Source of the DNA: a virus
Taxonomy: Duplodnaviria; Heunggongvirae; Uroviricota; Caudoviricetes
Strand: one strand, 5' to 3'
DNA length: 64,000 nucleotides
IMG/VR virus record: IMGVR_UViG_2861084961_000001
Every line of letters starts with the position of its first letter. Position 1 is the stretch's first letter. Shown one piece after another: positions 35,637-51,519 of this stretch. The position numbers and the translations under genes were made by a program. The notes under the pieces are model-generated. The model was not told the origin of the DNA. It worked only from the letters and a program-made list of their open reading frames with translations, and searched no databases.

Positions 35637-36217
35637 TAGATAAGTACAAACTATTCATAAGATGGATTGTAAGTGCTAAGATCTGATAGTTTCCAGTCGT
35701 AGACTGGAGACTCGACCTGATGGGTGGGGGTAAGCGTCACTGGCGTCAGGTTTAAAAAAGCTCACTACCAGCGTAGAACCGGTGCCGTTTAGGTGTCGGG
35801 GAAGGGGGAACCAAAGTGAGCGGAGACAAGGGTCACTTTATGATTGTCGAGTCTGGGATGTTTCGAGAGGTTGAATCCAGTACTCCCCTTCATAAAGTGT
35901 GGGAAGATCTCGGTTCTGGGGTGCTGTCATCCATAACTTCCCAAGTCTAAGCTGGCAGTAGACTTAGACCATAGCTTTTCAGGTTATGAAACGACCAGGT
36001 TGGTGAGGAATTTTATACTCACCTCCCTGGGAGAGTATTACCTGAAAAGACAACCTCTCACTTCGTTCGAGGTGAACTTCACTCACTTCGTTCGTTCAGT
36101 TCAGGTTTATAAAAACCTGTACTGGGAAGTAATTTGTTTATTTTAATAATTATTACACGCACGCGTGTGCGCACGCGCGAGGAAAAAATCGGCGCGGCGC
36201 TTGATTCAGGAGTTTAT

Positions 36218-36808
36218 ATGACGTCGAAGACACCAGCCCGGTCGCAAGCAAAAACTCGCAAAAAAGACAAAAACAAAAATTCTCCCCGCACCAATCCCAC
36301 AACGCCTGTCGTAGAGTTCAATCCCCAGCTTAAAACCGTGAAAATCTTCAGTGATGGCTCTTGCCTTAAAAATCCGGGTGGCCCGGGCGGTTACGGTATA
36401 GTTCTCCAGTATCGTGGTGAGGAACGCGAGTTCTCAGATGGTTTTCATAGCACCACCAATAACCGCATGGAGATGATGGGGGCACTTATCGGGCTGGAGC
36501 GTTTGAAATATCCATGCAACGTTATTTTGCACTCTGATAGCCAGTATCTGAAAAACGGCATGACACAGTGGATGAAATGGTGGAAACGCAATGGATGGAT
36601 GACTTCTGACAAAAAACCGGTAAAGAATGTTGATCTGTGGAAGCGTCTGGATGAGGCCGCAAGTCGACATAATGTTCGCTGGAAGTGGGTTAAAGGTCAC
36701 GCCGGGCATCGTGAAAATGAAATATGTGATCGACTCGCGAAGATCGCAGCTTTTTCCGCAGCAGATATGCCTCACAAGAAAGATATTGGTTTTGTTTATA
36801 ACAAGTAG
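36218..36808 (+). CDS. rnhA: ribonuclease HI with about 45-aa basic N-terminal extension
   Basis: [91 protein letters not shown]; ATG 36218 inside track ORF 36134..36808. Confidence 0.85.
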
Positions 36809-36827
36809 TAAGTAAGTGTTTACCTAT
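36808..36827. promoter_or_regulatory. motif A palindrome (GTAAGTAA-GTGT-TTACCTAT)
   Basis: Intergenic, after rnhA. Confidence 0.4.
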
Positions 36828-36956
36828 CATTTTAAATCATGTATCTTATCGGCGTCAGGATGACAATGTGTCGGTAAGACACAGTTCCAGGATGGAACGA
36901 GAAAGGCGGCTGGCAATCGCCAGCCGCAACTCTTTCTGACACTGGATGGAGTCCAC

Positions 36957-37464
36957 ATGGCACGTCAAACCTATTTCACTTCTGCAACTAAACGTCCTCG
37001 TTCTTTACGTCAAATTTTGGCCGAATTATTTAGCGGTCGTGTTATGTCACGTCTTGATGAACTAGAGACTACCGTTCGGTTGCTGAATGAACGTTTAGAT
37101 AATCAAGCGTCAGTTGTTGCGAACGTGGGGGCGATTGTTGCCTCTGGTTCTTCACGCGAAGCGAAAAGTACACGGCCTTTAGTGAAGGAGAAAAACAACA
37201 AGGACAGTTCGAATGGAAAATTTTCAAAGAAAGAGGCTGAAACCAATGGCCTACGTTCTCATTATAGTTTCACTGGCGACGGTAGCCGTTCCAGCCGGCC
37301 AGAGCCTTTTGATGCCGGATTCATCCATCACCACACCTTCGTCGACGACAATTACCACCACTCCAGTGGAGCGTCCTGTCACTCTGGATGGGATGGCGGT
37401 GGATGCGATACCTCAAGTTCATCCAGTTACTCAGGATCATGCTGTGACTAAGGCGGTTGTATGA
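36957..37464 (+). CDS. hypothetical protein(s) with C-terminal transmembrane segment; frames 36957.. and 37213.. probably one gene
   Basis: ORF track; hydrophobic AYVLIIVSLATVAVPAG in second frame. Confidence 0.3.
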
Positions 37465-37649
37465 ACTGGTTTTCAAATCACTTTGGAAAAATTTGGCTGG
37501 CAATTCTTGCCCTCATGGCCGCCGGTTGGGTATCGAACATTATAAAACTTGTTTGCTCTGGCGATCTCCAGTTTCAGGCTGGCATGACCTTGGCTCGTGT
37601 AGTTGGGATTTTTGTTTTTCCAGTTGGTTCGGTACTTGGTTATTTCTGA
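37461..37649 (+). CDS. small two-helix membrane protein (62 aa)
   Basis: ORF track; hydrophobic segments. Confidence 0.4.
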   Translation: MNWFSNHFGKIWLAILALMAAGWVSNIIKLVCSGDLQFQAGMTLARVVGIFVFPVGSVLGYF

Positions 37650-37704
37650 CGGCTGTTAGTGCATATGCATTGACCATCTCTGCGTAAGCAATTTATGTAA
37701 TTAG

Positions 37705-37719
37705 AAAACAACTTGTTTT
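37705..37719. promoter_or_regulatory. motif B palindrome (AAAACAA-C-TTGTTTT)
   Basis: Upstream of TerB-like gene. Confidence 0.45.
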
Positions 37720-37742
37720 GACAAATAATAAAAGGAAAACAC

Positions 37743-38167
37743 ATGTTAGGTTTCTTCAAAAAGAAAACTCGTAAAGCTGTTATCGAAGTCAAAAAATGGA
37801 GAACCGTGATGCGGTTGAGGCCACCGTGTGGGGCGCGTACATGATCTCCTATGCCGACGGCACATGTGACGCAAAAGAAATTGCCATTCTTGAGAAGACA
37901 ATTGCAGCTCTGCCTGCGTTTTCTCCGTTTGCTGGTGAAATTGCCCAAATGAGCGCCAATATCCGTGCTCGTTACGAAGCGTCCCCTCGTTCTGCTAATG
38001 CACAGGCTATTCGTGAGCTGTCTGATATTGCGGGTACTCCAGAGGCGGTCGATGTTCTGTGTCTGTGCCTTGATATTGCCGATCAGGACGGCATTGGTGA
38101 ACAAGAAGAGCAGGCACTGAAAAAGATCGCCCAGGCGCTTCAGTTGTCACTGGATGCTTATCTCTAA
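37743..38167 (+). CDS. TerB-like domain protein (frameshift at an A6 run near 37790)
   Basis: TerB-like helices with acidic motifs (DGTCDAKEIAILEKTIAAL, LCLCLDIADQDGIGEQEEQALKKIAQAL); ATG 37743 behind AAAAGGAAAACACATG is out of frame with ORF 37796..38167. Confidence 0.45.
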
Positions 38168-38328
38168 TGCTTGAGAGATTCCGGCTTGTGATCGTCATTG
38201 CTCTTCTGGTGATGGCGGTGTTGGTGGATTTACGGGAAAGATGATGTCTGTCATTTCTGATGGCGTCCTCATTGGTTTGGCGATCTACTTCGCTTATCCG
38301 TTAGTTCGTAAAGCAAAGTGTTAATGAC

Positions 38329-38352
38329 AAGGGCCAAATGGCCCTTGTGTTT
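38329..38352 (+). terminator. rho-independent terminator GGGCCA-AA-TGGCCC plus T-rich tail
   Basis: Hairpin after two small hydrophobic ORFs. Confidence 0.5.
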
Positions 38353-38431
38353 CGTTGACCGAAATAGAGAGTTTGCACCTTTACGTTTAGCTTGCTCCCC
38401 TTTTATGCCACATCACAATAAAGCCAATAAG

Positions 38432-38445
38432 AAAACAACTTGTTT
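38432..38445. promoter_or_regulatory. motif B palindrome (AAAACAA-C-TTGTTT)
   Basis: Upstream of 38464 gene. Confidence 0.45.
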
Positions 38446-38463
38446 AAGCATTAGGAAAAACAC

Positions 38464-39030
38464 ATGTGCAAGAAATGCAAAGCGATAGCTGATGAACAAA
38501 ACGCCTTATTCGAAGAAATGGATGCTAATGAACTGGTCAAAATGTTAGCCATTCTTCGAGGAATAGAAGACGTTTCCATATTTGAGAGAGTGGTTACAGC
38601 ACTTAATTTTGAGTCCACCTTTGAAGAGCCAACTCAGGTTGTAGCTTTAGCACATCATTTCGGTGTTCATTATCTTGCTGAAAAAGAGAGAGCTGATAAG
38701 TTGCAAGCGACTTTGGATATGGTGAGCGAGACTCAAGGAACTCATGACGGTAACAAAAGTGAGACGATTATTGCCAGCAAAGATCGTGAAATTGCCGGGC
38801 TTAAATCCTCTCTAACGATGTTGATGTCTGCAATTAACCTTATGTCTTCTAAAGCAGGTTATAAAATGCCATCACTAAACAGCGACGATCCGATGGCCGT
38901 TCGCCAGCTTTTAGGTGCAATGGCCGACCAGCTCGACGACACAAAGAGTCGCCTTGAAGACATGATGCGGGAGCTCACGCATCGCCATGACTTGAATAAG
39001 CAGCCACACAAAACGCAATACGCACTCTAA
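38464..39030 (+). CDS. hypothetical protein (188 aa)
   Basis: ORF track; AGGAAAAACACATG context. Confidence 0.45.
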   Translation: MCKKCKAIADEQNALFEEMDANELVKMLAILRGIEDVSIFERVVTALNFESTFEEPTQVVALAHHFGVHYLAEKERADKLQATLDMVSETQGTHDGNKSETIIASKDREIAGLKSSLTMLMSAINLMSSKAGYKMPSLNSDDPMAVRQLLGAMADQLDDTKSRLEDMMRELTHRHDLNKQPHKTQYAL

Positions 39031-39047
39031 TACTGCACCAGTCGACA

Positions 39048-39069
39048 GGGGGCGAAAGCCCCCATTTTT
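39048..39069 (+). terminator. rho-independent terminator GGGGGC-GAAA-GCCCCC plus T5
   Basis: Perfect stem plus ATTTTT. Confidence 0.6.
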
Positions 39070-39127
39070 ACGCCTTAAATCTGCTGTAACGCCTATGAAT
39101 GCAGCTTTTATGCCTTTTCAAGTTTGC

Positions 39128-39173
39128 GATAATTACACCAATAAGAAAACAAATTATTTAATGGTGTAATTAT
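39128..39173. promoter_or_regulatory. 12-bp perfect inverted repeat ATAATTACACCA / TGGTGTAATTAT enclosing a degenerate motif B; right arm overlaps the methyltransferase start codon
   Basis: Arms at about 39129-39140 and 39162-39173; ATG at 39172. Confidence 0.4.
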
Positions 39174-40857
39174 GAATACAGCCCTTTCCATCATCGACGA
39201 TGCCAGCTCAAACACGGCTATCGACTATCGTCAGGAAATGAATGTCATCCACGAAATCGTGGACGAGTGCGAGAAAGAGATCGCCTTCATGTATCAGGTA
39301 CACGACTTCGTTTATGGCGACGAACGCCACAACATGATTAATCGCCTGCTGAGACTAAACCATCGACCAGATGAAGATCGCTCGCGTTTAAATCGAGGTT
39401 GGTTGGATAAAGTTGATCTGGAATGGGTGAAACAGAATATTTGGGCCGAGTACTGGAGGAAGGTCACGGACATGACTAACGTTTTGCTGATCATGCCAGC
39501 TTCCCGTCGAGATGAGTGGCGCGAGCAGTTTATAGAGGGCAAACAGGAAGTCATCAAAACTGACAGAACCGGCTACCAGATGAAGGTTAAAGAGTTCGTT
39601 GGTGTACCGGAGTTCAAAGCAGAAACGGTCATACCCACGATGCTTAATTTGCTGAATGACAGGCACAAATATCTCTCTGAGCGCGTGTATGGCTTGTTTA
39701 AGGCGCTGAGTCCTGCGCACAAGACAAATAAGACAAACGGTTTCAGCGAGCGTCTGATAATCGCTGACTGCATTTCTGATTTCTGGCGGGACAGCGTTAG
39801 CGTGAACTATCGCAAAGAGGACTACATCGACGATCTGCGTGTCTTGCTTCATTTCTTCGCGCACAAAGAATTTATTACCATCAACCGCACTGCTGAGGTG
39901 CTATCAGCTGCGTATCGGGCAAACGACTGCCAGACCGGTGACTGGATGAACGTCGATGGAAATCTGATGCGCGTGAAGATGTTCAAGAACGGCAACGTTC
40001 ACTTTGAAATACATCCTGACGTGGCCTGGAAGTTGAATGAGGTGCTGGCTTACAGTATGCCTGCTGCAATCCCCGCGCCATGCCGAACTGCGCCAAAAAC
40101 ACGGGCACCAAAGCAGTTCGGTTTAATCCAGAAGACGATCTCCGTGCCGGTTCGCACTGCGCTTCGTGACGGGCGATTGAGCAAAGACAAAGGCGTATGG
40201 TACTTCTCTGATTCAGCTCTCCAGAAGTCGCAGGTGGAAGAGCTTGAGCGCACACTGAGCTTCATTGGCGGCGTGCAGGAGAAAAAGCACTGGCAGTTCC
40301 CGTATGACATCGGCCATACGCTAAATACGATTGTGGCTACCGGTTTAATACCGGATACAAAATCACACCAGTTCTACCCTACCCCACGCTTGATTGCTGA
40401 GTACGTTGCCAGAGCCACTGAATTGAAGCCTGGTGAGAAGCTGCTTGAGCCTCACGCCGGACGTGGGGATCTTCTGGCCTATATTAACGCCGATCTGGAA
40501 GATGTTACCTGCATAGAAATCGCACCTCTCTTCGCTGATATCCTGCGTGGAAAAGGGTATACGAACACGATTTGCTGCGACTTCATAAAGTGGTCTGAGG
40601 ACAACGCAGGTTATCAGTTCGACAAAATCGTTATGAACCCGCCGTACTCGCTTGGTCGTCATAGGGAGCACACGATGGCTGCGCTGGGGCATCTGAAAGT
40701 CGGCGGGCGTCTTGTAGCAGTATTGCCGGGCACTGCGCCAATACTGGACTGGATGACGATGGATAATTACGTTTATGCCAGAGGGAAGTCGTTTACCAAC
40801 GAGTTTGAAGACACAGGGATCACAGTCAGCGTATACGTTTTCAAACGCGTTAAATGA
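39172..40857 (+). CDS. DNA methyltransferase with about 400-aa N-terminal domain of unknown function and C-terminal NPPY-type catalytic domain
   Basis: LEPHAGRGDLL (SAM-binding-like) and DKIVMNPPYSLG; 561 aa intact. Confidence 0.6.
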   Translation: MNTALSIIDDASSNTAIDYRQEMNVIHEIVDECEKEIAFMYQVHDFVYGDERHNMINRLLRLNHRPDEDRSRLNRGWLDKVDLEWVKQNIWAEYWRKVTDMTNVLLIMPASRRDEWREQFIEGKQEVIKTDRTGYQMKVKEFVGVPEFKAETVIPTMLNLLNDRHKYLSERVYGLFKALSPAHKTNKTNGFSERLIIADCISDFWRDSVSVNYRKEDYIDDLRVLLHFFAHKEFITINRTAEVLSAAYRANDCQTGDWMNVDGNLMRVKMFKNGNVHFEIHPDVAWKLNEVLAYSMPAAIPAPCRTAPKTRAPKQFGLIQKTISVPVRTALRDGRLSKDKGVWYFSDSALQKSQVEELERTLSFIGGVQEKKHWQFPYDIGHTLNTIVATGLIPDTKSHQFYPTPRLIAEYVARATELKPGEKLLEPHAGRGDLLAYINADLEDVTCIEIAPLFADILRGKGYTNTICCDFIKWSEDNAGYQFDKIVMNPPYSLGRHREHTMAALGHLKVGGRLVAVLPGTAPILDWMTMDNYVYARGKSFTNEFEDTGITVSVYVFKRVK

Positions 40858-40876
40858 TAGGTAAATACTTACTTAA
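40857..40876. promoter_or_regulatory. motif A palindrome (ATAGGTAA-ATAC-TTACTTAA)
   Basis: Intergenic, upstream of 40919 gene. Confidence 0.4.
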
Positions 40877-40918
40877 TTTATGTAAGAATGTAGTAACTAA
40901 ACGATAAGAGAAAAACAC

Positions 40919-41623
40919 ATGAGCAACCTCCAGTTAGAGCATTTTAACGTCACAGGCCATTCCGATTTTCCTTTCAAGTTTACATTGAAAGGTTATGCGG
41001 AGGATGCGGTAGGCCAGATCATTATTGATAAAGGTATCGTTAAGTTTGAGGGGAATTTTGATGAATCCGCGAAAACATTCATAGACTTCGTTGCCAAACG
41101 TTGGAGCGAGCAATGGAAAGACCTGGAAAAGCGCGCCAATGAGTTTGATCGGTTCATGGATGCAATGGATACAGCAAAAGAGGCTCTGGCTGCCGGGACT
41201 CCGTTAGATCTGGAGTCACTTTTCAACGGCACAATGGCCTCTGCGATGTTCGCCACCATGTTCGCGGGTGAGTTCGTCCGCAGCGGTGCCAAAAACTACC
41301 TTGAGCTGGATTACAACGTCCCTGAAATTGGCGATTTCGTCGTTACCATCCAACGAAAAGAAGGTAAGACGCCAGGTGAACGCGTCGCAGAACTTGAGGC
41401 CGTTGTGGAGCAGCGTAACGGCGAGTGCGTTCGTTTGATCAACGAACGTAATGCTCTTCGTGAAGAAAAAATATGCACAGGTAGCAATACACGTAATGCA
41501 GCGGATATCTACTTCCAGTTAGTTGAGGAATGCCAGATTCCACCAGGTGGCTCTCTTGTCGATTACGTCAGACATTTAATGGCGGAAGTTAACTCCAGCC
41601 ATAAAGATGGTGAGGTGCGCTGA
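40919..41623 (+). CDS. hypothetical protein (234 aa)
   Basis: ORF track; GAGAAAAACACATG context. Confidence 0.45.
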   Translation: MSNLQLEHFNVTGHSDFPFKFTLKGYAEDAVGQIIIDKGIVKFEGNFDESAKTFIDFVAKRWSEQWKDLEKRANEFDRFMDAMDTAKEALAAGTPLDLESLFNGTMASAMFATMFAGEFVRSGAKNYLELDYNVPEIGDFVVTIQRKEGKTPGERVAELEAVVEQRNGECVRLINERNALREEKICTGSNTRNAADIYFQLVEECQIPPGGSLVDYVRHLMAEVNSSHKDGEVR

Positions 41624-42003
41624 TGTTTGGCATTGATGCACAGCGTATAGCAGCTTTTGCAAAAAGCCCTCTTGATAATCCCTTGTCTCGTAGTGAGCAA
41701 ATGGAGCTGGCAAGGCTTTTTCTTCACATTCAAAAACAGGCAGACGTTTTCAATAACATGCCTGATCAACCTATTCTGGATGGTCACATCCAGATGGTCA
41801 TTAACAGTCATGAGAAAGGCTGGGCTGCAATCGTCCCCTGCACAATTACATACAAGTTGGCGAAAGAGGTTCAAGAGTTTCGAAAAGCCAGTGTCGAATC
41901 GGAGTCTACCAAAGCCGCAATAAACACTCTTATTCGCATGGGGTTCACATGGGACGGTGGAGTTTACTGGCAAGCACCTCAACCCATTTTATCCGGCAAT
42001 TAG
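41623..42003 (+). CDS. hypothetical protein (126 aa)
   Basis: ORF track; start overlaps previous stop. Confidence 0.4.
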   Translation: MFGIDAQRIAAFAKSPLDNPLSRSEQMELARLFLHIQKQADVFNNMPDQPILDGHIQMVINSHEKGWAAIVPCTITYKLAKEVQEFRKASVESESTKAAINTLIRMGFTWDGGVYWQAPQPILSGN

Positions 42004-42062
42004 GCGCTACAAATCCTTCTGCATGAATAAATAAAGGCCATAACTTATGGCCTTAAATAAAT

Positions 42063-42113
42063 TGTTTTCTACCTTTTCTTATTTGTGAAAATAACCACAA
42101 CTAGAAAACAACG
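42063..42113. promoter_or_regulatory. motif B half-sites as inverted repeat TTGTTTTCT ... AGAAAACAA
   Basis: Upstream of the HD-hydrolase gene. Confidence 0.35.
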
Positions 42114-42122
42114 GAGTTAAGA

Positions 42123-42764
42123 ATGTCTAGTATTTCCGAAGCTCATATGTTCGCCGCTGGCGCTCATGGTGGCGTTGGTCAGAAAAGAAAATATACCGGC
42201 GAAGACTACATCAACCACCCGGTTGCTGTACGAGAGATTGTTGCATTGCATGACGGAACCGTGGATATGCAAATCGCGGCGCTTCTGCATGATGTGGTCG
42301 AAGACACCCATGTAACCATAGAGATGGTTCGTGATCACTTCGGTGAGCGCGTAGCTGAAATGGTTCAGGCTCTGACCAACATTGCAAGGCCAGAAGACGG
42401 CAATCGAATACAGCGTTTCATCATCAATGTCCGGGAGCTGGAGCAAAATCTCGACATGCAGACGCGCATGATCAAGCTGGCTGACCTGCTCGACAATACC
42501 TCTTCTATCGTGAGTCGCGATCCTGAGTTTTCAGCTATCTACCTTGCAGAGAAAGAGCTGATGCTGGACGTACTTTTTAACGGGAAGGAGATTGGTGCCA
42601 ACGCTGATGTTGTCGAGTACATGGAGAGGATAGGTATAGAACACCCGTTGCTATTAAGCGCAATGGCGAAAGTCACTGAAGGTATTGCGCTTCTGAAACC
42701 GGAACACATCAAACGTTATGAAAAACACAAATCGCTGATCTGGAGCGCGTGGGAGGCTGCATGA
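42123..42764 (+). CDS. HD-domain phosphohydrolase resembling the RelA/SpoT (p)ppGpp hydrolase domain
   Basis: AHGGVGQKRKYTGEDYINHPVAVREIVAL...AALLHDVVEDT matches the SpoT-type HD signature; 213 aa, no synthetase domain. Confidence 0.55.
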   Translation: MSSISEAHMFAAGAHGGVGQKRKYTGEDYINHPVAVREIVALHDGTVDMQIAALLHDVVEDTHVTIEMVRDHFGERVAEMVQALTNIARPEDGNRIQRFIINVRELEQNLDMQTRMIKLADLLDNTSSIVSRDPEFSAIYLAEKELMLDVLFNGKEIGANADVVEYMERIGIEHPLLLSAMAKVTEGIALLKPEHIKRYEKHKSLIWSAWEAA

Positions 42765-42907
42765 AGGTAGAAAAAATAGATGTTCTTTCCTTTGTGCTGA
42801 CGGATCTGGAACGTCTCGATCCGGTTCGAGTGATGATTGAAAACTACGAACCTGGTAAGGGAAGAATCACCATCACCTGCTACGGAAAAGCGTGGACTGC
42901 GGCTTAG
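42761..42907 (+). CDS. small ORF (48 aa) coupled to HD gene by ATGA overlap
   Basis: Read from sequence; below track length cutoff. Confidence 0.25.
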   Translation: MKVEKIDVLSFVLTDLERLDPVRVMIENYEPGKGRITITCYGKAWTAA

Positions 42908-42913
42908 TTTGCT

Positions 42914-43303
42914 ATGGGCGGTGATGATGTGCAGACGTTCATCAAGCGAGTTAGCAACGACTATCTAATCGACAATTTCGACCCTCAACTGCTAAGCACG
43001 GTCGACGATGACAACGATGCAAATCTGCTTTTCGTGAAGTCAGAAATCATAAAGTTACGAAGAGAGAGAGAAATCGACGCCGTACTAGCTCGTGAAATGT
43101 GGGACGAGGCGGAAAACGCCGATGACGTAAAAGAAAGCTGCTGTTGTTTCGGCGTCGGTAACAAACTGTTGAATCTCTTTGGTGATGATCCGTGGTATGC
43201 CGACTGGCCAACTGTACCAAACCCGAAATACCAGTATCTGGAACGCATTGTGAACGCGGTACGTGAAGGGCTGAAAGAGTTAGACAAGTTAGAGGCATCG
43301 TAA
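42914..43303 (+). CDS. hypothetical protein (129 aa)
   Basis: ORF track. Confidence 0.4.
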   Translation: MGGDDVQTFIKRVSNDYLIDNFDPQLLSTVDDDNDANLLFVKSEIIKLRREREIDAVLAREMWDEAENADDVKESCCCFGVGNKLLNLFGDDPWYADWPTVPNPKYQYLERIVNAVREGLKELDKLEAS

Positions 43304-43758
43304 TGAGAGAGAAAATCAAGAACCCGGTCGTCGTATTGTATAAACGGGAAACCAGCGATTCTTATGCGGTATCCATCACTGATGGAAGCCAGAACATGCA
43401 CGATGGTCTGCTAATGGCCGCCGTATCTCCTGATGATTCGGACTACCCTTTCGCCACTTTCGCTATGGTTGGTTACTACATGGCTGCCGAAATTGAGAAG
43501 TTGCGGGCGCAGAGAGACGCATTAGCGGCGGAGAATGCAGCCCTGAAAGAATCTGAGCGAGCATTCGATGCGATGTGTGCCGAGGAACACGGAGATAATT
43601 GGGTTAGCGAATTAACGGAGACTCCAGCCACCGATGCTTTTCTGGCTGAAGTACGTGCGCAGGGCGTGGAGATGTTTGCGGAGTGTGCATACACACTTGA
43701 ACATCATGATCACGCAGTAGCTTTTGCCGCCGAGCTACGTAAAGGAGATAGACAGTGA
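43303..43758 (+). CDS. hypothetical protein (151 aa)
   Basis: ORF track. Confidence 0.4.
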   Translation: MREKIKNPVVVLYKRETSDSYAVSITDGSQNMHDGLLMAAVSPDDSDYPFATFAMVGYYMAAEIEKLRAQRDALAAENAALKESERAFDAMCAEEHGDNWVSELTETPATDAFLAEVRAQGVEMFAECAYTLEHHDHAVAFAAELRKGDRQ

Positions 43759-44228
43759 GTGAGATTAACTACCTGGCGTTACGTGAGCGTTATTCACCAA
43801 AACCAGCGCCTAGATGCTCTGTTTGTGGCGAGGAAATGTCAATACAGCGCATATCTGGAGCACATGTCGTTTATGCCTGCTCCGGTGAGGGTGATGACGG
43901 ATATTTTAAGATAGGACGTACTTTTGCAGACGAACATTATGAAAAATCACGCGTAACAGTAGTTGATGATAGTGATCCCGATGTGATTGCACTGCTGGAA
44001 GAACTGGATAAAAGACGACATTACATCGGACGTCTTGAGCAGGAGAACGTAGAGATGGCCCTAACGCTTGAGAAGCTGCGTGTTGAGATGAAGGCAGCCA
44101 AATCAAAACTCAACGAGCAGCGTGAGTATTACGAAGGTGTTATCTCGGATGGAAGCAAGCGCATAGCCGCTCTTCTTTGCAAGGACAATCTTGTCAGCAC
44201 CACGAACATTGAAGGTGAAAGAAGATGA
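43755..44228 (+). CDS. hypothetical protein (157 aa) with N-terminal CxxC...C cluster and coiled coil
   Basis: ORF track. Confidence 0.4.
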
Positions 44229-44548
44229 CCACATCGCATTCTGCTATTACCCAGGAAAAAGCCTTCAACATACTCGAACGACTAGAGACGCTCGCTACGG
44301 AGGAGGAGATATCCCTGGAGAAACTGGTTGAGTTCAGCCGTGTGATATTGCGTCGCAAGAACGATATGGAGCGGCTGACATCTGGCGCTCCATCCTTATC
44401 AGCCAGGCGAACACTTTGTTGCAGCTTCTGCAACAAATCCCAGTACGCCGTCAAAAAGTTAATTGCTGGGGACGCCGTTTTCATCTGCGACGAGTGTGTG
44501 GATGTGTGCAACAGAATTATCCGGGGAGAGAAAGAGGGATCAGCATGA
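44225..44548 (+). CDS. small protein with ClpX-type zinc-binding domain at C-terminus
   Basis: [35 protein letters not shown] matches the ClpX N-terminal C4 zinc-finger pattern. Confidence 0.5.
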
Positions 44549-45096
44549 AATTTTCCAAATTTTCTGAGTCGGTGAATCGTATTTTGTCCAACAACCACAG
44601 CCATCGTCGCGATATGGATGTAACGATCGTTGTTCATTCGCCTGGTCGCATCGGTTCAACACCATCAGTTGAGGTTCAGTCAATTCAGGCGGGTTTTGAT
44701 TGGGATGCCGGGCAAGTGATGATTTTTCCAGCACAGCCACTGACCACGCTAACACCGGAGCAGGTTGCTGATATTACTGAAAGTGTGCACAAAGGCCAGT
44801 CATGGCACGCGTATCAGGAATACAAGAAGCATAAAGAGCAGTTGGAAAAATTGTCGATGGAGTTGGAAGCCGCTAAACAGAGGGAAAAAGATCTGTTTAT
44901 GGAAAATGTTCGACTTAAGTCAGGTATAGCCGGTCTGATACACCTCGGTATTCGATATGCGGATGTCGAGGTCATGAAAATAGCTGGAGATGCCCAGCTT
45001 TCTACTCCCTGTACTGACAGCATCATAAACAGTATTGCATCAGGCGTTTTCACCAAAGAGGGTCAGCATGATGAGAACAGTAGAAGTTCGCGCTGA
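44545..45096 (+). CDS. hypothetical protein (183 aa)
   Basis: Internal ATG 44545 overlapping upstream stop inside track ORF 44416..45096. Confidence 0.4.
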
Positions 45097-45256
45097 AGAT
45101 GTAACCCCAGGCGATGTGGTCATAACATCTAAAGGCAAACGATGTGCGGTTAAATCTTTCTGGATGAACGGTGAAAAAGTGACTCTGTTCGGTACGGATG
45201 GTTCCGAAACTGATTATGACTACGACGAATTGCTTGTTGTTGAGAGAGCTACCTAA
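45068..45256 (+). CDS. hypothetical small protein
   Basis: Track ORF 45035..45256, RBS-supported internal start. Confidence 0.3.
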   Translation: MMRTVEVRAEDVTPGDVVITSKGKRCAVKSFWMNGEKVTLFGTDGSETDYDYDELLVVERAT

Positions 45257-45792
45257 TGACCACCTTTACCAAAGAACAGTTAATCTCCCATGCACGCGAA
45301 AGCGTTAGTTATCTGGAAGACTTGAAAGGACGTGTTAGTAAAGAAGGAGCGGACTGCAAAGTTGTTCATGAGATGGTTGAACGAGATCTAAAACTGGCTC
45401 GAATTGCGCTGACCTCACTGGAGGCAGAGCCAGTGGCGTGGCAGGTAACACTCACAAAAAACGATCAGGAATCAGTCTCTATTATTTACCGTGACTGTGC
45501 AGAGAAAGATACATGGGTTCGGATATATGAGTCACTCGGTTCTGTCGCACATGTTGCCCCGCTTTACATGGCGCAGCCAGAACCGTCGAAGGAGGAGAAA
45601 GGACGTTCAGTCATCCAGGGTAAAGCCGATAATTCACCATTGCCGCGCTACCAGGTTATCGAATTAACAATGCTGGTTAAACAATTGGTCAGCCAACTGA
45701 AAAAAGCAAAACCTGATTGCAAATTACCGGATAGGGCGATGGATTATCTTTTGCGGAACGGACTGCTAAGTGTGGAGGATGCCTTACGATGA
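45256..45792 (+). CDS. hypothetical protein (178 aa)
   Basis: ORF track. Confidence 0.4.
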   Translation: MTTFTKEQLISHARESVSYLEDLKGRVSKEGADCKVVHEMVERDLKLARIALTSLEAEPVAWQVTLTKNDQESVSIIYRDCAEKDTWVRIYESLGSVAHVAPLYMAQPEPSKEEKGRSVIQGKADNSPLPRYQVIELTMLVKQLVSQLKKAKPDCKLPDRAMDYLLRNGLLSVEDALR

Positions 45793-46067
45793 TTGAAATG
45801 ACAAAAGAAGAACTAACACAGGCAACAAAGGATTACGGAAAAATGCACATCGCACATCGTATGGCGAATGTGTTACTGGCCTTGTCTGAACAAAAGCCAT
45901 CTGCGTTTGTAATGAAAGATGATTTGGCCGATCCGGCAATTGTTTCGACTCCGGCATATTTAGATATTGAGGATGCGGAACAAAAAACGATTGGGATATT
46001 GTCGCGCTTTATGCCGATCCCTTTCCTGTCATCGGCGACACTACTGCTCTTGTGGACGATATTTTAA
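45789..46067 (+). CDS. hypothetical protein (92 aa)
   Basis: ORF track. Confidence 0.35.
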   Translation: MIEMTKEELTQATKDYGKMHIAHRMANVLLALSEQKPSAFVMKDDLADPAIVSTPAYLDIEDAEQKTIGILSRFMPIPFLSSATLLLLWTIF

Positions 46068-46375
46068 ACATTCTCGCGCTTCTTGAGGCTGGCGATTGGT
46101 CAGAACATTGCACTAAAACGGAGTTAGGCGGTCGGCTTGAAAGAGAGATTACACAACTTATTGGTGATGCCCAAAATGATTTGTCACCTGAGCATCTCCC
46201 CTGCGATGTAGTCCTTGTGCCAGGGATGAGGATACACGAAGGCGTCAGAACGAAAACATTATTAACCGCATTACAGAGAAGAGCCGAACTAAGCTCGCGG
46301 ATAAAGTTGATGCCATCCAAAATATTTGATGTCGTCAAATTTACGCCATCGCAACATACTGAGAGAGATAAATGA
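46052..46375 (+). CDS. hypothetical protein (107 aa)
   Basis: ORF track. Confidence 0.35.
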   Translation: MDDILNILALLEAGDWSEHCTKTELGGRLEREITQLIGDAQNDLSPEHLPCDVVLVPGMRIHEGVRTKTLLTALQRRAELSSRIKLMPSKIFDVVKFTPSQHTERDK

Positions 46376-46998
46376 GCACGGTAGCGAAAGATCTCACAGA
46401 AGATATTCTCAATGAAATTATTGTTGGTGCAAATACCTCGCTTGAGCAACTTCTTGCGTTAGCACTGAGAGCCGAACGTCGAGACAGAAATCGTTTTTAT
46501 GAGCGATTACCTGGGAAACGACCAGATAGATCAGATGAAGAAGGTTGCGATATAGACTACATGGAGCCTTCAGAGATTTATCAACTTGGTAAAGATGACG
46601 GCTGGAACGCTTATCACGATGCTGTGATGAAGTTGGATGAAAAAGTTAAACCTCTTTCTCGAACGGTAGATCACGGTTTCCGCGATAACTGCGAATGCTC
46701 TAGTTGCCAGACCACGGCCCGTATTTGTTCCGAATTGACAGATAAATCCAGCCTAATCTACGAAGTTAATGTAGGCGGTAATACATGGGTCGAATGCACA
46801 AGAGCTGCATACGTAAGAGCAAAAGACAAGGGTGAATTAACCAGAGTTGTTGCCCATCACCCAAATAATGAGCTTAAAGATCACCAAATTCGAGAACTGG
46901 TGAACGAGTTGAGGGATATTGCGGTTCAGTACCACGGAACGCAGCAATTGCGGGAGAAGATTGCCAGAGCAGTGAACAACTCAGTCCGTAAAAAATAA
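46372..46998 (+). CDS. hypothetical protein (208 aa)
   Basis: ORF track; followed by hairpin AGGCCCCAT...ATGGGGCCT at 47006-47030. Confidence 0.45.
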   Translation: MSTVAKDLTEDILNEIIVGANTSLEQLLALALRAERRDRNRFYERLPGKRPDRSDEEGCDIDYMEPSEIYQLGKDDGWNAYHDAVMKLDEKVKPLSRTVDHGFRDNCECSSCQTTARICSELTDKSSLIYEVNVGGNTWVECTRAAYVRAKDKGELTRVVAHHPNNELKDHQIRELVNELRDIAVQYHGTQQLREKIARAVNNSVRKK

Positions 46999-47440
46999 GC
47001 AATAGTACGATAAAGAGGCCCCATGCTCTTGATGGGGCCTGTAGCAACTAGCGTTATGGACGCTGGTTTACGTACTCAATGATCGCTTTGATAATCGCGA
47101 ACATCGGCGGCACGATTTTGAACAGTAAGTTAACCATAACAGGCCTCACTTAGTTTTATCGCGCCTAGCTGCAAATACCTTTGGGCTTGCCTTTGCAGTT
47201 GCAATATCTGTAGTCGCCAGATACTTACGGCACGATTTCGAGTTAAGGTAAGGTTTTAGAGTCACCAAAAACCTGGACTTAAATCTTCTTTGAGAACAAC
47301 GATGTTTAGTAAATGGTCATTATTACCTGGTATGACCACTCAACGTTTCTTGATGAATCCAGTACATTCGGTTAATCTTAATTCAGTCGCCAGATACTTA
47401 TGGCTCAGGAACAGAGCCGCAAACTCTGTTTCCTTTTAAA

Positions 47441-47469
47441 AAGCCCAGCCTAGTCAACTGGGCTTTTTA
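47441..47469 (+). terminator. rho-independent terminator AAGCCCAG-loop-CTGGGCTT plus T5, preceded by a second hairpin at about 47408-47433
   Basis: Stem-loops with T-run inside a 760-bp non-coding stretch. Confidence 0.5.
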
Positions 47470-47763
47470 ATGTCTATTTTTAACCCAATGAACCTTCAAT
47501 ACCGCAACATCAGTGTCTTGCGAATTAAGATAGTGTGTATAGGTTATACATGCAAGTGCATAACTCTGTGGATAACTCAGGAAGGAAAAAGTAGCTTCCG
47601 CGCAATTTAGGCCAGACAAGGCTTTCGCAAAAATCAACGGAGAGAAAAAAATTTGTTAAAAATAACGTTTGTTGGAATTGTATATATTTATGCCTTTCAA
47701 TAGTTAGCATCTTATTAACATCTTTTTTAAGAGATAGAGTTCAAAAATATATAGCTTCAACAT

Positions 47764-47783
47764 ATACTGTATGCATATACAGT
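47764..47783. promoter_or_regulatory. LexA (SOS) box TACTGTATGCATATACAGTA
   Basis: Perfect CTGT-N8-ACAG palindrome about 17 bp upstream of the umuD-like start. Confidence 0.7.
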
Positions 47784-47800
47784 ATTAAGAGGCGAGTATT

Positions 47801-48190
47801 ATGGGCTTCCCTTCTCCTGCGGCGGATTATGCTGAGAGCCGTATTTCTCTTGATCAGCAGATAATTAGACATCCTTCAGCGACCTACTTCTTGAGGGCAG
47901 CTGATAGCCATCATCGTGAGGGAATATTGCAGGGTGCATTGCTGGTGGTCGATTCCTCACTCACTCCTGTTGATGGATCTCTTCTTGTATGTGCTCTGGA
48001 TGGGGAATATCGCGTAAAAAGATACCGGAAGTATCCACGTCAGCATCTGGAGGATTTAAGAACTGGTAAGAAGGAAGCATTGCCAAAGGATGATGATGGA
48101 TGCACGGGCAGCAATGCCGTGTTTGGTGTGATCACTCACATTATCAACGACGCAAGAAGTGGCGAGTTTGATGATTGTCCTGTGATGTAG
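47801..48190 (+). CDS. umuD: UmuD-prime-like protein (S24 peptidase fold, begins at the position matching the UmuD cleavage product)
   Basis: MGFPSPAADYAESRISLDQQIIRHPSATYFLRA...DGEYRVKRY matches the recalled UmuD core from residue 25 onward. Confidence 0.65.
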   Translation: MGFPSPAADYAESRISLDQQIIRHPSATYFLRAADSHHREGILQGALLVVDSSLTPVDGSLLVCALDGEYRVKRYRKYPRQHLEDLRTGKKEALPKDDDGCTGSNAVFGVITHIINDARSGEFDDCPVM

Positions 48191-48201
48191 GAGAACTGTT
48201 T

Positions 48202-48222
48202 AGGTGGTGCATTGCACCACCT
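48202..48222. terminator. perfect palindromic hairpin AGGTGGTGCA-T-TGCACCACCT between convergent umuD-like and mrp
   Basis: 10-bp perfect stem; T-run on plus strand. Confidence 0.45.
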
Positions 48223-48227
48223 TTTTA

Positions 48228-49328
48228 TCACACTGCGCGGAATGCGATTTCGCCAGGTATTACTTCACCTTGCCAATACATTTGGGCAGCAACGCGATCT
48301 GCGAGGTCACGATAAATAGCCGTAAATTCGCTATCTGGACGACTAATAACGGTTGGTGTTCCGTTATCCAGATCCTCACGAAGAGAGATATGAAGTGGCA
48401 TTTGGCCTAACAACTGCGTGTTGTATTTCTCGGCCAGTTTCTGTGCGCCACCGGTGCCAAAAATTGGCTCGTGATGACCGCAGTTACTGCAAATATGCAC
48501 ACTCATGTTTTCGACGATACCTAGTACCGGCACTTCGACTTTTTCGAACATCACAATGCCTTTCTTCGCATCGATCAGCGCGATGTCTTGCGGCGTAGTT
48601 ACCACAACCGCACCAGTTACAGGAATGTTCTGCGCCAGCGTCAATTGAATATCACCAGTGCCCGGCGGCATATCGAGAACGAGATAGTCCAGATCAGGCC
48701 ACAGTGTTTCCTGCAACATCTGCATCAGCGCCTTGCTGGCCATCGGTCCACGCCACACCATTGCATTGTCGTCGGTGACCAGATAACCAATAGAGTTGGT
48801 TGCCAGGCCATGAGACATGATAGGTGCCATGTGAGTACCGTCCGGTGAGGTTGGACGTTGGTTTTCCGCACCCAGCATGGTTGGAATTGATGGACCGTAG
48901 ATATCGGCATCCAAAATACCAACTTTCGCACCTTCAGCAGCCAACGCCAGTGCCAAGTTTACTGCTGTGGACGATTTGCCTACACCGCCCTTGCCTGAGC
49001 TGACGGCGATGATGTTCTTAACGCCATTAATGCCTGGTTGGTTTTTGACGCGCTTAAGCGTGGCAATGTTGTACGACAGCTTCCAGTCGATAGCCTTTGC
49101 GCCAGTGATACGGAGCAGATCACCACTACATTGCTCTTTCAGGTCTTCAAAAGGCTTATTCCACACGAAAGGCATGATTAGTTCGACATGCAGTGTGTCA
49201 TCCATCAACGCAACATGGTGTAACGCTTTAAGCGTAGTCAGGTTGTGCTTCAGGGTTGGGTGCTGAAAATTAGCCAGCGTACCGGCTACCATTGCTCTCA
49301 GGGCATCCGGCGATTTGGACTCGCTCAT
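48228..49328 (-). CDS. mrp: Mrp/ApbC Fe-S cluster carrier ATPase, intact, host-type
   Basis: 366 aa; deviant Walker A SSGKGGVGKSSTAVNLA, CxxC motif; near-identical to recalled E. coli Mrp. Confidence 0.9.
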   Translation of the reverse strand: MSESKSPDALRAMVAGTLANFQHPTLKHNLTTLKALHHVALMDDTLHVELIMPFVWNKPFEDLKEQCSGDLLRITGAKAIDWKLSYNIATLKRVKNQPGINGVKNIIAVSSGKGGVGKSSTAVNLALALAAEGAKVGILDADIYGPSIPTMLGAENQRPTSPDGTHMAPIMSHGLATNSIGYLVTDDNAMVWRGPMASKALMQMLQETLWPDLDYLVLDMPPGTGDIQLTLAQNIPVTGAVVVTTPQDIALIDAKKGIVMFEKVEVPVLGIVENMSVHICSNCGHHEPIFGTGGAQKLAEKYNTQLLGQMPLHISLREDLDNGTPTVISRPDSEFTAIYRDLADRVAAQMYWQGEVIPGEIAFRAV

Positions 49329-49485
49329 CCCGTCTCCTTTATTTTAATTTGCGCAATTGTCGCCTTGTAGTGTACTCCAGCTACGACATTTAATCATTTA
49401 TGAGAAATGCTGTTATCACATGGCAGACATAAGGCCATTTTGTTACTATCAAGCCCCTTTTCACTACAAAGAAGTAATGCCTACT

Positions 49486-51519
49486 ATGACCCAAGTCGCG
49501 AAGAAAATTCTGGTGACGTGCGCGCTGCCGTACGCTAACGGCTCAATCCACCTCGGCCATATGCTGGAGCACATCCAGGCTGATGTCTGGGTTCGTTACC
49601 AGCGAATGCGCGGCCACGAGGTTAATTTCATCTGTGCCGACGATGCCCACGGTACGCCGATCATGCTGAAAGCACAGCAGCTTGGTATCACACCGGAACA
49701 GATGATTGGCGAAATGAGCCAGGAACACCAGACTGATTTCGCAGGCTTTAACATCAGCTATGACAACTATCACTCGACGCACAGCGAAGAGAACCGCCAG
49801 CTGTCTGAGCTTATCTATACTCGCCTGAAAGAGAACGGTTTTATTAAAAACCGCACTATCTCTCAGTTGTACGACCCGGAAAAAGGCATGTTCCTGCCGG
49901 ATCGTTTTGTGAAAGGCACCTGTCCGAAATGTAAAGCGCCAGATCAATACGGCGATAACTGTGAAGTTTGCGGCGCGACCTACAGCCCGACTGAACTGAT
50001 TGAGCCGAAATCGGTAGTTTCTGGCGCTACGCCGGTAATGCGTGATTCTGAACACTTCTTCTTTGATCTGCCCTCTTTCAGCGAAATGTTGCAGGCATGG
50101 ACCCGCAGCGGTGCGTTGCAGGAGCAGGTGGCAAACAAAATGCAGGAGTGGTTTGAATCTGGTCTGCAACAGTGGGATATCTCCCGCGACGCACCTTACT
50201 TCGGTTTTGAAATTCCGAACGCGCCGGGTAAATATTTCTACGTCTGGCTGGACGCACCGATTGGCTACATGGGTTCCTTCAAGAATCTGTGCGACAAGCG
50301 CGGCGACACTACCAGCTTCGATGAATACTGGAAGAAAGACTCCACCGCCGAGCTGTACCACTTCATCGGTAAAGATATCGTTTACTTCCACAGCCTGTTC
50401 TGGCCTGCCATGCTGGAAGGCAGCAACTTCCGCAAGCCGACCAACCTGTTTGTTCACGGCTATGTGACGGTGAACGGCGCGAAGATGTCCAAGTCTCGCG
50501 GCACCTTTATTAAAGCCAGCACCTGGTTGAATCATTTTGACGCTGACAGCCTGCGTTACTACTACACCGCCAAACTGTCTTCGCGCATTGATGATATCGA
50601 TCTCAACCTGGAAGATTTCGTTCAGCGCGTGAATGCCGATATCGTGAACAAAGTGGTTAACCTGGCCTCCCGTAATGCGGGCTTTATCAACAAACGTTTT
50701 GACGGCGTGCTGGCAAGCGAACTGGCTGACCCGCAACTGTACAAAACCTTTACTGATGCCGCTGAAGTGATTGGCGAAGCATGGGAAAGCCGCGAATTTG
50801 GTAAAGCTATCCGTGAAATCATGGCATTGGCTGACCTGGCTAACCGCTATGTCGATGAACAGGCTCCGTGGGTGGTGGCGAAGCAGGAAGGACGCGATGC
50901 CGATCTGCAGGCGATTTGCTCTATGGGCATTAACCTGTTCCGCGTGCTGATGACTTACCTGAAACCGGTACTGCCGAAACTGACAGAACGTGCGGAAGCA
51001 TTCCTCAATACGGAACTGACCTGGGATGGCATCCAGCAACCGCTGCTGGGCCATAAAGTGAATCCGTTCAAAGCACTGTATAACCGTATCGACATGAAAC
51101 AGGTGGAAGCATTGGTGGAAGCGTCTAAAGAAGAAGTGAAAGCTACTGCCGCGCCAGTTACTGGCCCGCTGGCAGACGACCCGATTCAGGAAACCATCAC
51201 CTTTGACGACTTTGCCAAAGTTGACCTGCGCGTGGCGCTGATCGAAAACGCAGAGTTTGTTGAAGGTTCTGACAAACTGCTGCGCCTGACGCTGGATCTC
51301 GGCGGTGAAAAACGTAATGTCTTCTCAGGCATCCGTTCCGCTTATCCAGACCCACAGGCACTGATTGGCCGTCACACCATTATGGTGGCTAACCTGGCTC
51401 CGCGTAAAATGCGTTTCGGTATCTCCGAAGGCATGGTGATGGCTGCTGGCCCCGGCGGGAAAGACATCTTCCTGTTAAGCCCGGATGCTGGTGCTAAACC
51501 TGGCCACCAGGTTAAGTAA
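49486..51519 (+). CDS. metG: methionyl-tRNA synthetase, intact, host-type
   Basis: [29 protein letters not shown] (HIGH-type), KMSKS, C-terminal tRNA-binding domain; start at ATG 49486 inside track ORF 49357..51519. Confidence 0.95.

Follow-up and report, generated by a model that had tools for sequence, protein, structure and literature searches.

A likely variable early accessory gene array, with a PaSpo-type alarmone hydrolase ortholog, on an SSU5-like phage-plasmid of Escherichia coli

What does a six-kilobase run of small, overlapping genes do for the element that carries it? The question is raised by positions 40919–46998 of the IMG/VR record IMGVR_UViG_2861084961_000001 (the window, here always the whole stretch of 64,000 nucleotides (nt) that was analysed), which are spanned by an unbroken run of plus-strand open reading frames (ORFs). 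An earlier reading of the sequence, the original prediction, took this run for a host-takeover or anti-defence module. We consider it likely that it is instead a variable early accessory gene array of an SSU5/pHCM2-type phage-plasmid, the counterpart of the exo–xis region of phage lambda and the 'ea' regions of phage P22. The array would not be one machine; it would be a series of cassettes, each exchanged on its own, from a pool common to lambdoid prophages and P1/D6 phage-plasmids.

An array of twelve genes on a phage-plasmid

The best matches to the window are circular plasmids of E. coli of ~108–110 kb, at 96–98% identity, followed by phage SSU5 at 86%; phages CMS-2020a, PhiR41_1 and Cyrano also match. 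Genes are ordered RNase H, TerB, DUF4942 methyltransferase, the array, HumD, apbC and metG. This order is the same from RNase H to metG in plasmid pEC881_2, the DG341-1 plasmid and phage Cyrano, and in SSU5 it is the same through the array. Judged by these matches, the window comes from an SSU5/pHCM2-type phage-plasmid of E. coli. A chromosomal island beside mrp/metG was considered and ruled out: apbC and metG (48228–51519) also follow the array on ~108-kb circular plasmids and in Cyrano, and are therefore taken to be borne by the element.

The run contains 14 apparent ORFs and 12 real genes (g1 to g13, with g11/12 a single gene), ten of which are intact. The original estimate of about twelve consecutive plus-strand genes agrees with this count once fragment ORFs are merged. 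Because every product except the out-of-frame g11 tail matches a PHROG family at E ≤ 1e-23, and because the ORFs are carried as annotated genes in near-identical RefSeq plasmids, we regard them as genes and not as chance ORFs. No two array proteins are related to each other at E ≤ 0.01 (BLASTP), and g5, g6 and g8 are linked by shared PHROG profiles alone.

Tight coupling through ATGA or TGATG overlaps had been predicted throughout. When the junctions were re-derived, overlaps were found at 10 of 11: six of 4 nt (ATGA at g3/g4, g6/g7, g7/g8, g10/g11 and g12/g13, and GTGA at g5/g6), three of 1 nt (TGATG at g1/g2, and TAATG at g4/g5 and g9/g10) and one of 26–29 nt (g8/g9). The remaining junction, g2/g3, departs from the prediction with a 119-nt gap (42004–42122, plus strand), the only intergenic spacer in the array. 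In keeping with the original prediction, which structural or housekeeping products would have contradicted, Pfam, PHROG, NCBIfam and PADLOC place no array product in a defence, structural or housekeeping family.

A hotspot of cassette exchange

To describe variation at this site, ~70 related loci were fetched by way of the conserved methyltransferase and the window proteins were scored in them by tblastn; 49 loci were informative. The methyltransferase is present in all 49. The most conserved array gene is g1 (44 loci), followed by g2 (33), g5 (26), g4 (23–25), the HD gene g3 and g13 (19 each), g9 (14), g6 and g8 (11 each) and g7 (9), and g10 is full-length in none. From the end of the methyltransferase to HumD the distance ranges from 1.2 to 7.8 kb, and the shortest intervals from the methyltransferase to HumD/apbC, in some related elements, measure 1.2–1.5 kb. 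The methyltransferase–HumD interval is a gene-turnover hotspot with cassette-like exchange.

The copy in the window is itself recombinant, as g1–g2 and g8–g13 are 97–99% identical to the DG341-1 plasmid, which does not carry g3, g4, g6 or g7, and g3–g7 are ~98% identical to pEC881_2. Of the 2,339 E. coli records that match, only 3 span 80% or more of the array, and pieces of it occur in 2,176 of 5,426 E. coli genomes, chiefly in chromosomal prophages. The region is already known, in that hundreds of sequenced plasmids carry near-identical copies, whose products are annotated as hypothetical proteins. Relatives of its cassettes lie in the early non-essential regions of lambdoid phages (EaA, EaE and EaD of P22, and Ea22 of lambda), and the pairing of an Ead/Ea22 gene with a gene for a ClpX-type zinc-binding domain (ZBD) recurs in a similar array of phage-plasmid D6.

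The cassettes of relatives extend beyond those found here. In pEC881_2 a 174-amino-acid Toprim protein is encoded directly after the g13 homolog (locus L001, 12122–12646), and a Toprim gene occupies the same site in L014, L027, L028, L032, L049 and L051, making seven loci with pEC881_2; it does not occur in this window. The protein is 42% identical to proteins of T5-like phages, and 487 phage records match it. Rad is an anti-retron Toprim protein of ~189 amino acids from T5-family phages (10.1101/2023.03.15.532788); it occurs in 16% of Escherichia SSU5-group elements, in which it is the sole anti-defence system reported (10.1101/2025.09.12.675607). The array-end Toprim protein is probably Rad, with which we compare it by description only (size, Toprim domain and T5-like distribution).

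A variable cargo site of this kind might also hold defence genes that, through superinfection exclusion or abortive infection, shield a lysogen from other phages or plasmids, and defence systems are described as frequent on phage-plasmids (10.1101/2025.09.12.675607). We find this very improbable for the array. PADLOC gave no significant match to any of its 12 products (its one hit, of a Type II restriction endonuclease to the second g4 fragment, g4b, at E 0.008, is taken as noise), no nuclease, ATPase, TIR, Sir2 or toxin–antitoxin domain was detected with Pfam, and the sole characterized gene counters a defence instead of providing one.

A PaSpo-type small alarmone hydrolase

That gene is g3 (42123–42764, plus strand), the first after the spacer, the product of which is a 213-amino-acid small alarmone hydrolase (SAH) of the PaSpo type, an HD-domain RelA/SpoT homolog (RSH). 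It has an HD_4 domain (Pfam, E 1.2e-18, 67.7 bits against a cutoff of 27.2) and an N-terminal match to spoT_relA (NCBIfam), and its relatives in the PDB are MESH1, the hydrolase domains of Rel/SpoT and SAHs. The protein consists of this single domain, without a synthetase domain, and is syntenic with SSU5 PaSpo (SSU5_099), to which it is 87% identical over all 213 amino acids; the 28 residues that differ lie mostly in the C-terminal third. The RSH hydrolase motifs (H...HD...ED...D), with their metal-binding and catalytic residues, are preserved in g3 as H32, H56-D57, E60-D61 and D121. We take these residues to correspond to the metal ligands of MESH1. The gene occurs in 44 of 5,426 complete E. 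coli genomes, always on plasmids and at no chromosomal place.

PaSpo of SSU5 neutralized all five of the toxic small alarmone synthetase (toxSAS) toxins against which it was tested (PMC7229694, Table 1). It removes the tRNA modification, a 3′ pyrophosphate, that toxSAS enzymes install (bioRxiv 10.1101/2024.07.05.602228), and it is in routine use to detoxify CapRel and FaRel2 during expression (PMC9712102). CapRel(SJ46), an anti-phage abortive-infection system, comes from a temperate phage of Salmonella and has an identical sequence in E. coli prophages (PMC9712102), so the defence that PaSpo targets exists in the host range of the element. Orthology gives solid support to g3 as a PaSpo ortholog with a predicted role in counter-defence against toxSAS. 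The enzyme would hydrolyse toxic alarmones and strip the 3′ pyrophosphate from tRNA, undoing the action of CapRel-type toxSAS, and the element could then establish itself and replicate in cells that carry such systems. An obligate two-gene system of the HD gene with g4 was also considered, as the two co-occur in SSU5-like loci, and was rejected, as genes of the g4 family occur without the HD gene in exo–xis and nin regions of prophages.

If one product counters host immunity, the array as a whole might be a dedicated anti-defence island, in which most of the 12 products would be immune inhibitors made early, alongside a protective methyltransferase. PaSpo is a bona fide neutralizer of toxSAS, an orphan methyltransferase gene immediately precedes the array, the array genes turn over rapidly as an arms race predicts, relatives carry the Rad-like Toprim gene at its 3′ end, and, as noted above, its products fall outside defence, structural and housekeeping families. 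However, g3 is alone among the 12 genes in having evidence for counter-defence: no other array gene matched anything characterized as such in searches of Pfam, PHROG, NCBIfam, PADLOC and the PDB, and the Rad-like gene belongs to this site in relatives, not here. Furthermore, three or four of the 12 genes are of the Ea type, which is abundant in lambdoid phages and has a developmental role where it has been studied (PMC7093339), and the same cassettes sit beside recombination and regulatory genes in exo–xis and nin regions. We therefore judge a dedicated island rather unlikely. What stands of the original anti-defence proposal is the PaSpo ortholog, the turnover hotspot and the Rad-like gene in seven related loci; what falls is the idea of a purpose-built module, as the array is a mosaic with two inactivated cassettes.

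Relatives of lambdoid early genes

The original prediction held that only the HD hydrolase and the ClpX zinc-finger protein could be recognized, which proved too narrow: g6 belongs to the Ead_Ea22 family, g4 to PF26211, and g2, g5 and g8 have EaA-, EaE- and Ea22-like relatives, respectively. The product of g2 (41623–42003, plus strand; 126 amino acids; phrog_10451) resembles the N terminus of EaA, with 66% identity to SSU5_097, a 'putative Eaa protein', and 59% identity over 34 amino acids to the N terminus of P22 EaA. The EaE-like product of g5 (43303–43758, plus strand; 151 amino acids; phrog_492/614/368) is 47% identical to P22 EaE and 60% identical to an 'Eae-like protein' of Cyrano. The Ea22-like coiled-coil protein encoded by g8 (44545–45096, plus strand; 183 amino acids) matches phrog_6026 and phrog_368, the latter shared with g6, and is 55% identical to an 'Ea22-like protein' of Cyrano. 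By homology only, g5, g6 and g8 would encode EaE- and Ead/Ea22-type coiled-coil proteins.

The family of g4 (42761–43303, plus strand; 180 amino acids when intact) was assigned through precomputed PF26211 annotations of its homologs: Phage_phiTE_072 (PF26211) is on all 120 listed homologs of the repaired protein, out of 216 at E ≤ 0.001. In Klebsiella prophages, Phage_phiTE_072 genes lie between RecT/YqaJ/MT-A70 and traR-like/xis/int, which is the exo–xis region, and in a Pectobacterium prophage one lies in the nin region.

The product of g6 (43755–44228, plus strand; 157 amino acids) has an N-terminal CxxC region and a coiled coil, and matches Pfam Ead_Ea22 (PF13935) at E 1.9e-30 (106.7 bits against a cutoff of 27) over model positions 1–138 of 139. 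Its 67% identity to lambda Ea22 is limited to amino acids 36–99, the coiled coil, and the protein ends 17 amino acids later; the C-terminal domain of lambda Ea22 was not found in g6 by alignment or by PDB search, and the pEC881_2 copy is flagged 'missing C-terminus'. Lambda Ea22 is tetrameric and pro-lysogenic, biasing the choice between lysis and lysogeny through a host partner (PMC7093339; PMC10834534), and Ea22 of phi24B is likewise pro-lysogenic (PMC7093339). A pro-lysogenic role for g6 would be extrapolated from lambda and phi24B Ea22, the only ones with a known phenotype of this kind.

These relatives raise the possibility that the array is a developmental switch like lambda exo–xis, tuning the lytic state against plasmid-state lysogeny together with host physiology, with PaSpo acting broadly on (p)ppGpp, by hydrolysis, and so dampening the stringent response. 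The coiled coil that g6 shares with Ea22 and the Ea-type relatives of g5, g8 and g2 point in this direction. So does the finding that Ea22 is pro-lysogenic and other exo–xis genes are pro-lytic (PMC7093339; PMC10834534). RSH hydrolases do degrade (p)ppGpp, and the ClpX-type protein g7 could stabilize regulators that are sensitive to ClpXP. Set against this, g6 has no counterpart of the C-terminal domain of Ea22, the part proposed to make contact with the host partner, and experiment ties PaSpo to the neutralization of toxSAS. A developmental switch is possible, if on balance doubtful, and it is compatible with our preferred reading of the array as exchanged early accessory cassettes.

A free ClpX zinc-binding domain

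The 107-amino-acid product of g7 (44225–44548, plus strand) combines an N-terminal helical hairpin with a ClpX-type C4 ZBD. Pfam zf-C4_ClpX matches at E 1.2e-15 (57.5 bits against a cutoff of 27), and PDB entries 2ds5/1ovx match at E 7e-15 with all four cysteines kept; the four are invariant in the alignment of the g7 family. Residues 62–102 are ~68–71% identical to residues 10–50 of E. coli ClpX. The AlphaFold2 (AF2) model (predicted local distance difference test score, pLDDT, 76) has helices at residues 10–26 and 31–52, a linker and the ZBD, and the top Foldseek matches of this model are the ClpX ZBD structures 2DS5, 2DS6, 2DS8 and 1OVX, at 71–73% identity. No AAA+ module was found: the NCBIfam ClpX equivalogs match over model positions 4–48 only, with 39–42 bits against a cutoff of ~360. 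As the AAA+ module is absent, g7 is a ZBD-bearing protein and not a ClpX.

The hairpin is rare. Its first 60 residues, used as the query of an exhaustive search, matched 7 cluster representatives among 1.84 billion. Of these, five have a ZBD or a ZBD-like C-terminal part and two (55 and 77 amino acids) do not; in one representative the ZBD is even closer to that of the host ClpX than the ZBD of g7 is. Relatives over the full length are all but confined to Escherichia and Salmonella. The gene is present in 108 E. coli genomes, at 109 places in all, of which 103 lie on plasmids with the size of SSU5 or of P1/D6. All nine loci that carry g7 also have a full-length g8. Many homologs of g7, including that of phage D6, bear the name 'carboxylate--amine ligase', for which there is no sequence support.

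The N-domain of ClpX is the docking site of UmuD′, lambda O, MuA, FtsZ, SspB and the unfolded MqsA antitoxin (PMC8808172). We tentatively suggest, with the identity of the domain as our guide, that g7 might be a ClpX N-domain decoy that blocks adaptor- and N-domain-dependent proteolysis by ClpXP. Such a protein would compete or heterodimerize with the N-domain of the host ClpX, or titrate its ligands, and would thereby divert from ClpXP those substrates that depend on adaptors or on the N-domain, for example UmuD′/HumD-like proteins, replication initiators and antitoxins. Candidates for stabilization would be ClpXP-sensitive proteins of the element itself, such as HumD and replication proteins, or antitoxins whose loss triggers abortive infection. 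It is conceivable that HumD, 0.8 kb downstream, is the beneficiary. If the suggestion is right, mimicry of a docking site would be a route, not described before, by which a mobile element disables an AAA+ protease of its host, and the array would be two-pronged against toxin-based immunity, with PaSpo reversing the action of toxins and g7 preventing their release.

Disrupted and remaining genes

Two genes of the array are disrupted in this copy. The two g4 ORFs (42761–42907 and 42914–43303) share one reading frame, which is broken by a TAG codon at 42905–42907 (W49*) where pEC881_2 and SSU5 have TGG (Trp49). Among 86 related loci fetched, ten have the intact TGG allele and none the TAG allele. 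The g11/12 gene (45789–46375, plus strand; phrog_19524), which encodes 195 amino acids in its closest relative, is frameshifted: ORFs 45789–46067 and 46052–46375 are one gene in the DG341-1 plasmid (locus L086, 7034–7621), and one G has been lost from a GGGG run near 45993, an allele seen in 0 of the 86 loci. This homopolymer deletion could be a sequencing error. Because both genes are inactivated here, g4 and g11/12 appear to be dispensable.

Most of the other products are matched only by PHROGs without an assigned function; for g1, g2, g9, g10, g11/12 and g13, Pfam, NCBIfam, PADLOC and PDB gave no matches. PDB sequence searches with g5, g6, g8, g10, g11/12 and g13 returned only a coiled-coil match to BRE1, which is not meaningful. 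The 234-amino-acid product of g1 (40919–41623, plus strand) matches phrog_8364 at E 2e-146 and belongs to a family, without a Pfam entry, that is confined to SSU5-like elements of ~100–115 kb. A weak Pfam match to DrmE_N (16.6 bits against a cutoff of 27) was dismissed, and the AF2 model, built from a 30-sequence alignment, is unusable (pLDDT 49.5). The N-terminal 100 amino acids of g1 also match phrog_3451, a family of 287 amino acids that aligns to approximately these residues (40919–41220) and then to all of g4 (42761–43303); the N-terminal part of g1 and g4 are therefore fused in a protein of other phages.

The small gene g9 (from 45071 or 45068 to 45256, plus strand; 61–62 amino acids; phrog_15283, E 4e-42) is 85–87% identical to its homologs in pEC881_2 and Cyrano, and its 29-nt overlap with g8 is annotated in the DG341-1 plasmid. 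The product of g10 (45256–45792, plus strand; 178 amino acids) is a mosaic of nin/ea-type modules, with partial matches to each of phrog_660, phrog_60, phrog_5117 and phrog_924, and an identical copy occurs in nine E. coli plasmids of ~108–116 kb. The last array gene, g13 (46372–46998, plus strand; 208 amino acids), matches phrog_21749 at E 1e-146, and its C-terminal 40 amino acids are common to five other PHROGs.

With two of 12 genes disrupted, g6 apparently truncated at its C terminus, g10 and g13 patchworks of partial PHROG matches, and an interval that shrinks to 1.2–1.5 kb in some relatives, the array could be read as decaying selfish cargo, an accumulation of hitch-hiking lambdoid fragments that now do little or nothing. 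We think this improbable. Ten genes are intact and their start–stop coupling is preserved, alleles are 95–99% conserved across many plasmids, the SSU5 ortholog of g3 is active, and both lesions are private to this copy among the 86 loci, the G-run deletion perhaps being an error of sequencing.

Transcription and hairpins

The array is probably a single transcript that runs from before the DUF4942 methyltransferase, probably the first gene of the unit, to a hairpin after g13; both the promoter and the transcript are what we infer from the following features. Upstream of the methyltransferase there is a strong intrinsic terminator (39048–39068; GGGGGCGAAAGCCCCC followed by a T-run), and after it a conserved leader precedes the methyltransferase (39048–39172 region). 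A promoter scan found no plus-strand sigma-70-like site within the array, and between 38000 and 48300 promoter-like sites are fewer than in shuffled sequences (5 against 14.4 expected). Eighteen nucleotides past the stop codon of g13 lies the GC-rich hairpin AGGCCCCAT...ATGGGGCCT (47016–47040; minimum free energy (MFE) −20.4 kcal/mol, z −2.05), which is not followed by a T-run on the plus strand and which probably marks the end of the transcription unit.

The g2/g3 spacer contains the stem-loop AAGGCCATAACTTATGGCCTT (42034–42054), with a 9-bp stem, an MFE of −24.3 kcal/mol and a z of −3.3. The identical stem-loop is present in 12 related loci, whether the gene that follows is the HD hydrolase or an EaE-like gene. 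No T-run follows its plus-strand copy, and a terminator-like call was made on the minus strand only. Its conservation ahead of different genes suggests a mark of a cassette boundary, or a site of RNA processing or attenuation, and the hairpin may attenuate transcription of the array. Known RNA elements were not found in 36000–49000 (Rfam, E ≤ 0.1).

A 10-bp inverted repeat, AATTACACCA / TGGTGTAATT, overlaps the ribosome-binding site and start codon of the methyltransferase gene. In the DG341-1 plasmid it reads AATTGCACCA / TGGTGCAATT, a compensatory change. The repeat may be an element of translational or operator control.

Flanking genes

As originally noted, a methyltransferase gene adjoins the array: the left anchor (39172–40857, plus strand), directly upstream, encodes a 561-amino-acid protein with DUF4942 and DNA methyltransferase domains (Pfam DUF4942, E 1.7e-20; phrog_6263 'DNA methyltransferase', E 1.6e-298), and PADLOC MTase_II/mad2 models match its amino acids 394–523. 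The conserved right anchor is HumD (47801–48190, plus strand), a UmuD′-like protein that matches the NCBIfam equivalog NF051876 with 217.7 bits against a cutoff of 120; HumD and apbC occur together in 22 of the 49 loci compared. A LexA box, CTGTATGCATATACAG (47767–47782; CTGT-N8-ACAG pattern), lies 19 nt upstream of HumD. As HumD is preceded by its own box, it is probably induced by the SOS response as a separate unit, independently of the array.

The 800-bp, gene-poor spacer between the array and HumD (46999–47800) has no homology to the Toprim or small-ORF segment of pEC881_2. It contains a terminator-like hairpin at 47447–47464 and, on the minus strand, an ORF for a hydrophobic peptide of 27 amino acids (MVNLLFKIVPPMFAIIKAIIEYVNQRP, 47054–47137). 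The region of this ORF has no Rfam match, and the ORF could specify a small membrane peptide or a type I toxin, or be nothing. Beyond HumD, full-length apbC (minus strand) and metG, the gene for methionyl-tRNA synthetase, occupy 48228–51519, as they also follow in pEC881_2, the DG341-1 plasmid and Cyrano. With metG on a phage-plasmid, lysogens have a second, element-borne methionyl-tRNA synthetase.

Weighing the evidence

Several points weigh against the reading that we prefer. Seven of the 12 genes are without functional evidence. A published screen of SSU5-group elements for anti-defence systems reported Rad only, leaving the array without a catalogued system (10.1101/2025.09.12.675607). The experiments on PaSpo relied on co-expression with toxins, and we came across no infection experiment in which it protected a phage or a phage-plasmid against CapRel. 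The decoy role suggested for g7 is drawn from the identity of its domain, and a free ZBD could equally be an adaptor or some other binder. Finally, that the array forms a single operon is something that we infer, and the conserved hairpin in the spacer could split it into two units.

SSU5-group phage-plasmids are common in multidrug-resistant lineages of Shigella sonnei, Salmonella Typhi and E. coli (10.1101/2025.09.12.675607). The presence of PaSpo, shown by experiment to neutralize toxSAS, in a cassette hotspot and, among complete E. coli genomes, on plasmids only is a reason why some of these elements may establish themselves in hosts armed with CapRel-type systems. The variable interval from the DUF4942 methyltransferase to HumD offers a defined place in which to look for further host-interference genes, among which g7 is the most tractable candidate.

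Comparison with known systems

Gene by gene, the closest known system is PaSpo of SSU5, which g3 resembles in its length of 213 amino acids, its HD_4 domain, its position and the Phage_phiTE_072 gene that overlaps it downstream. It differs at 28 residues, and the activity of g3 itself is predicted. Compared with ClpX, g7 has the same ZBD, four zinc-ligand cysteines and predicted fold, but it has no AAA+ unfoldase, and its ZBD is C-terminal, placed behind a helical hairpin of 60 amino acids. PinA of phage T4 and Gp4.5 of phage T7 are small early phage inhibitors of the protease Lon, and in the T7 case inhibition prevents the degradation of an antitoxin and abortive infection. The parallel with g7 would be a functional analogy only, as there is no sequence relationship and g7 is proposed to mimic the docking domain of the protease.

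At the level of the cluster, the array can be set beside the Dar/Ddr genes of P1, the 'ADI' of T5 with Rad, and the anti-defence islands of plasmid leading regions. Like them, it is an early, variable cluster next to a methyltransferase with at least one counter-defence gene, and in related loci this site also holds a Rad-like Toprim gene. Unlike them, it has such evidence for one gene of 12, most of the others are of the Ea type, and the Rad-like gene is absent from the window. The resemblance to lambda exo–xis and the P22 'ea' regions is broader. All are sets of small, co-directional, overlapping, early and non-essential genes that evolve as mosaics of cassettes, and they share homologs: the coiled coil of Ea22/EaD, EaE and the N terminus of EaA, with Phage_phiTE_072 genes in the exo–xis regions of prophages. 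The array differs in its setting, which is a ~108-kb phage-plasmid, between a DUF4942 methyltransferase and HumD/apbC/metG, rather than between exo/erf and xis/int; and to the lambdoid repertoire it adds an alarmone hydrolase and a ClpX-ZBD protein, both of which are missing from lambda and P22.

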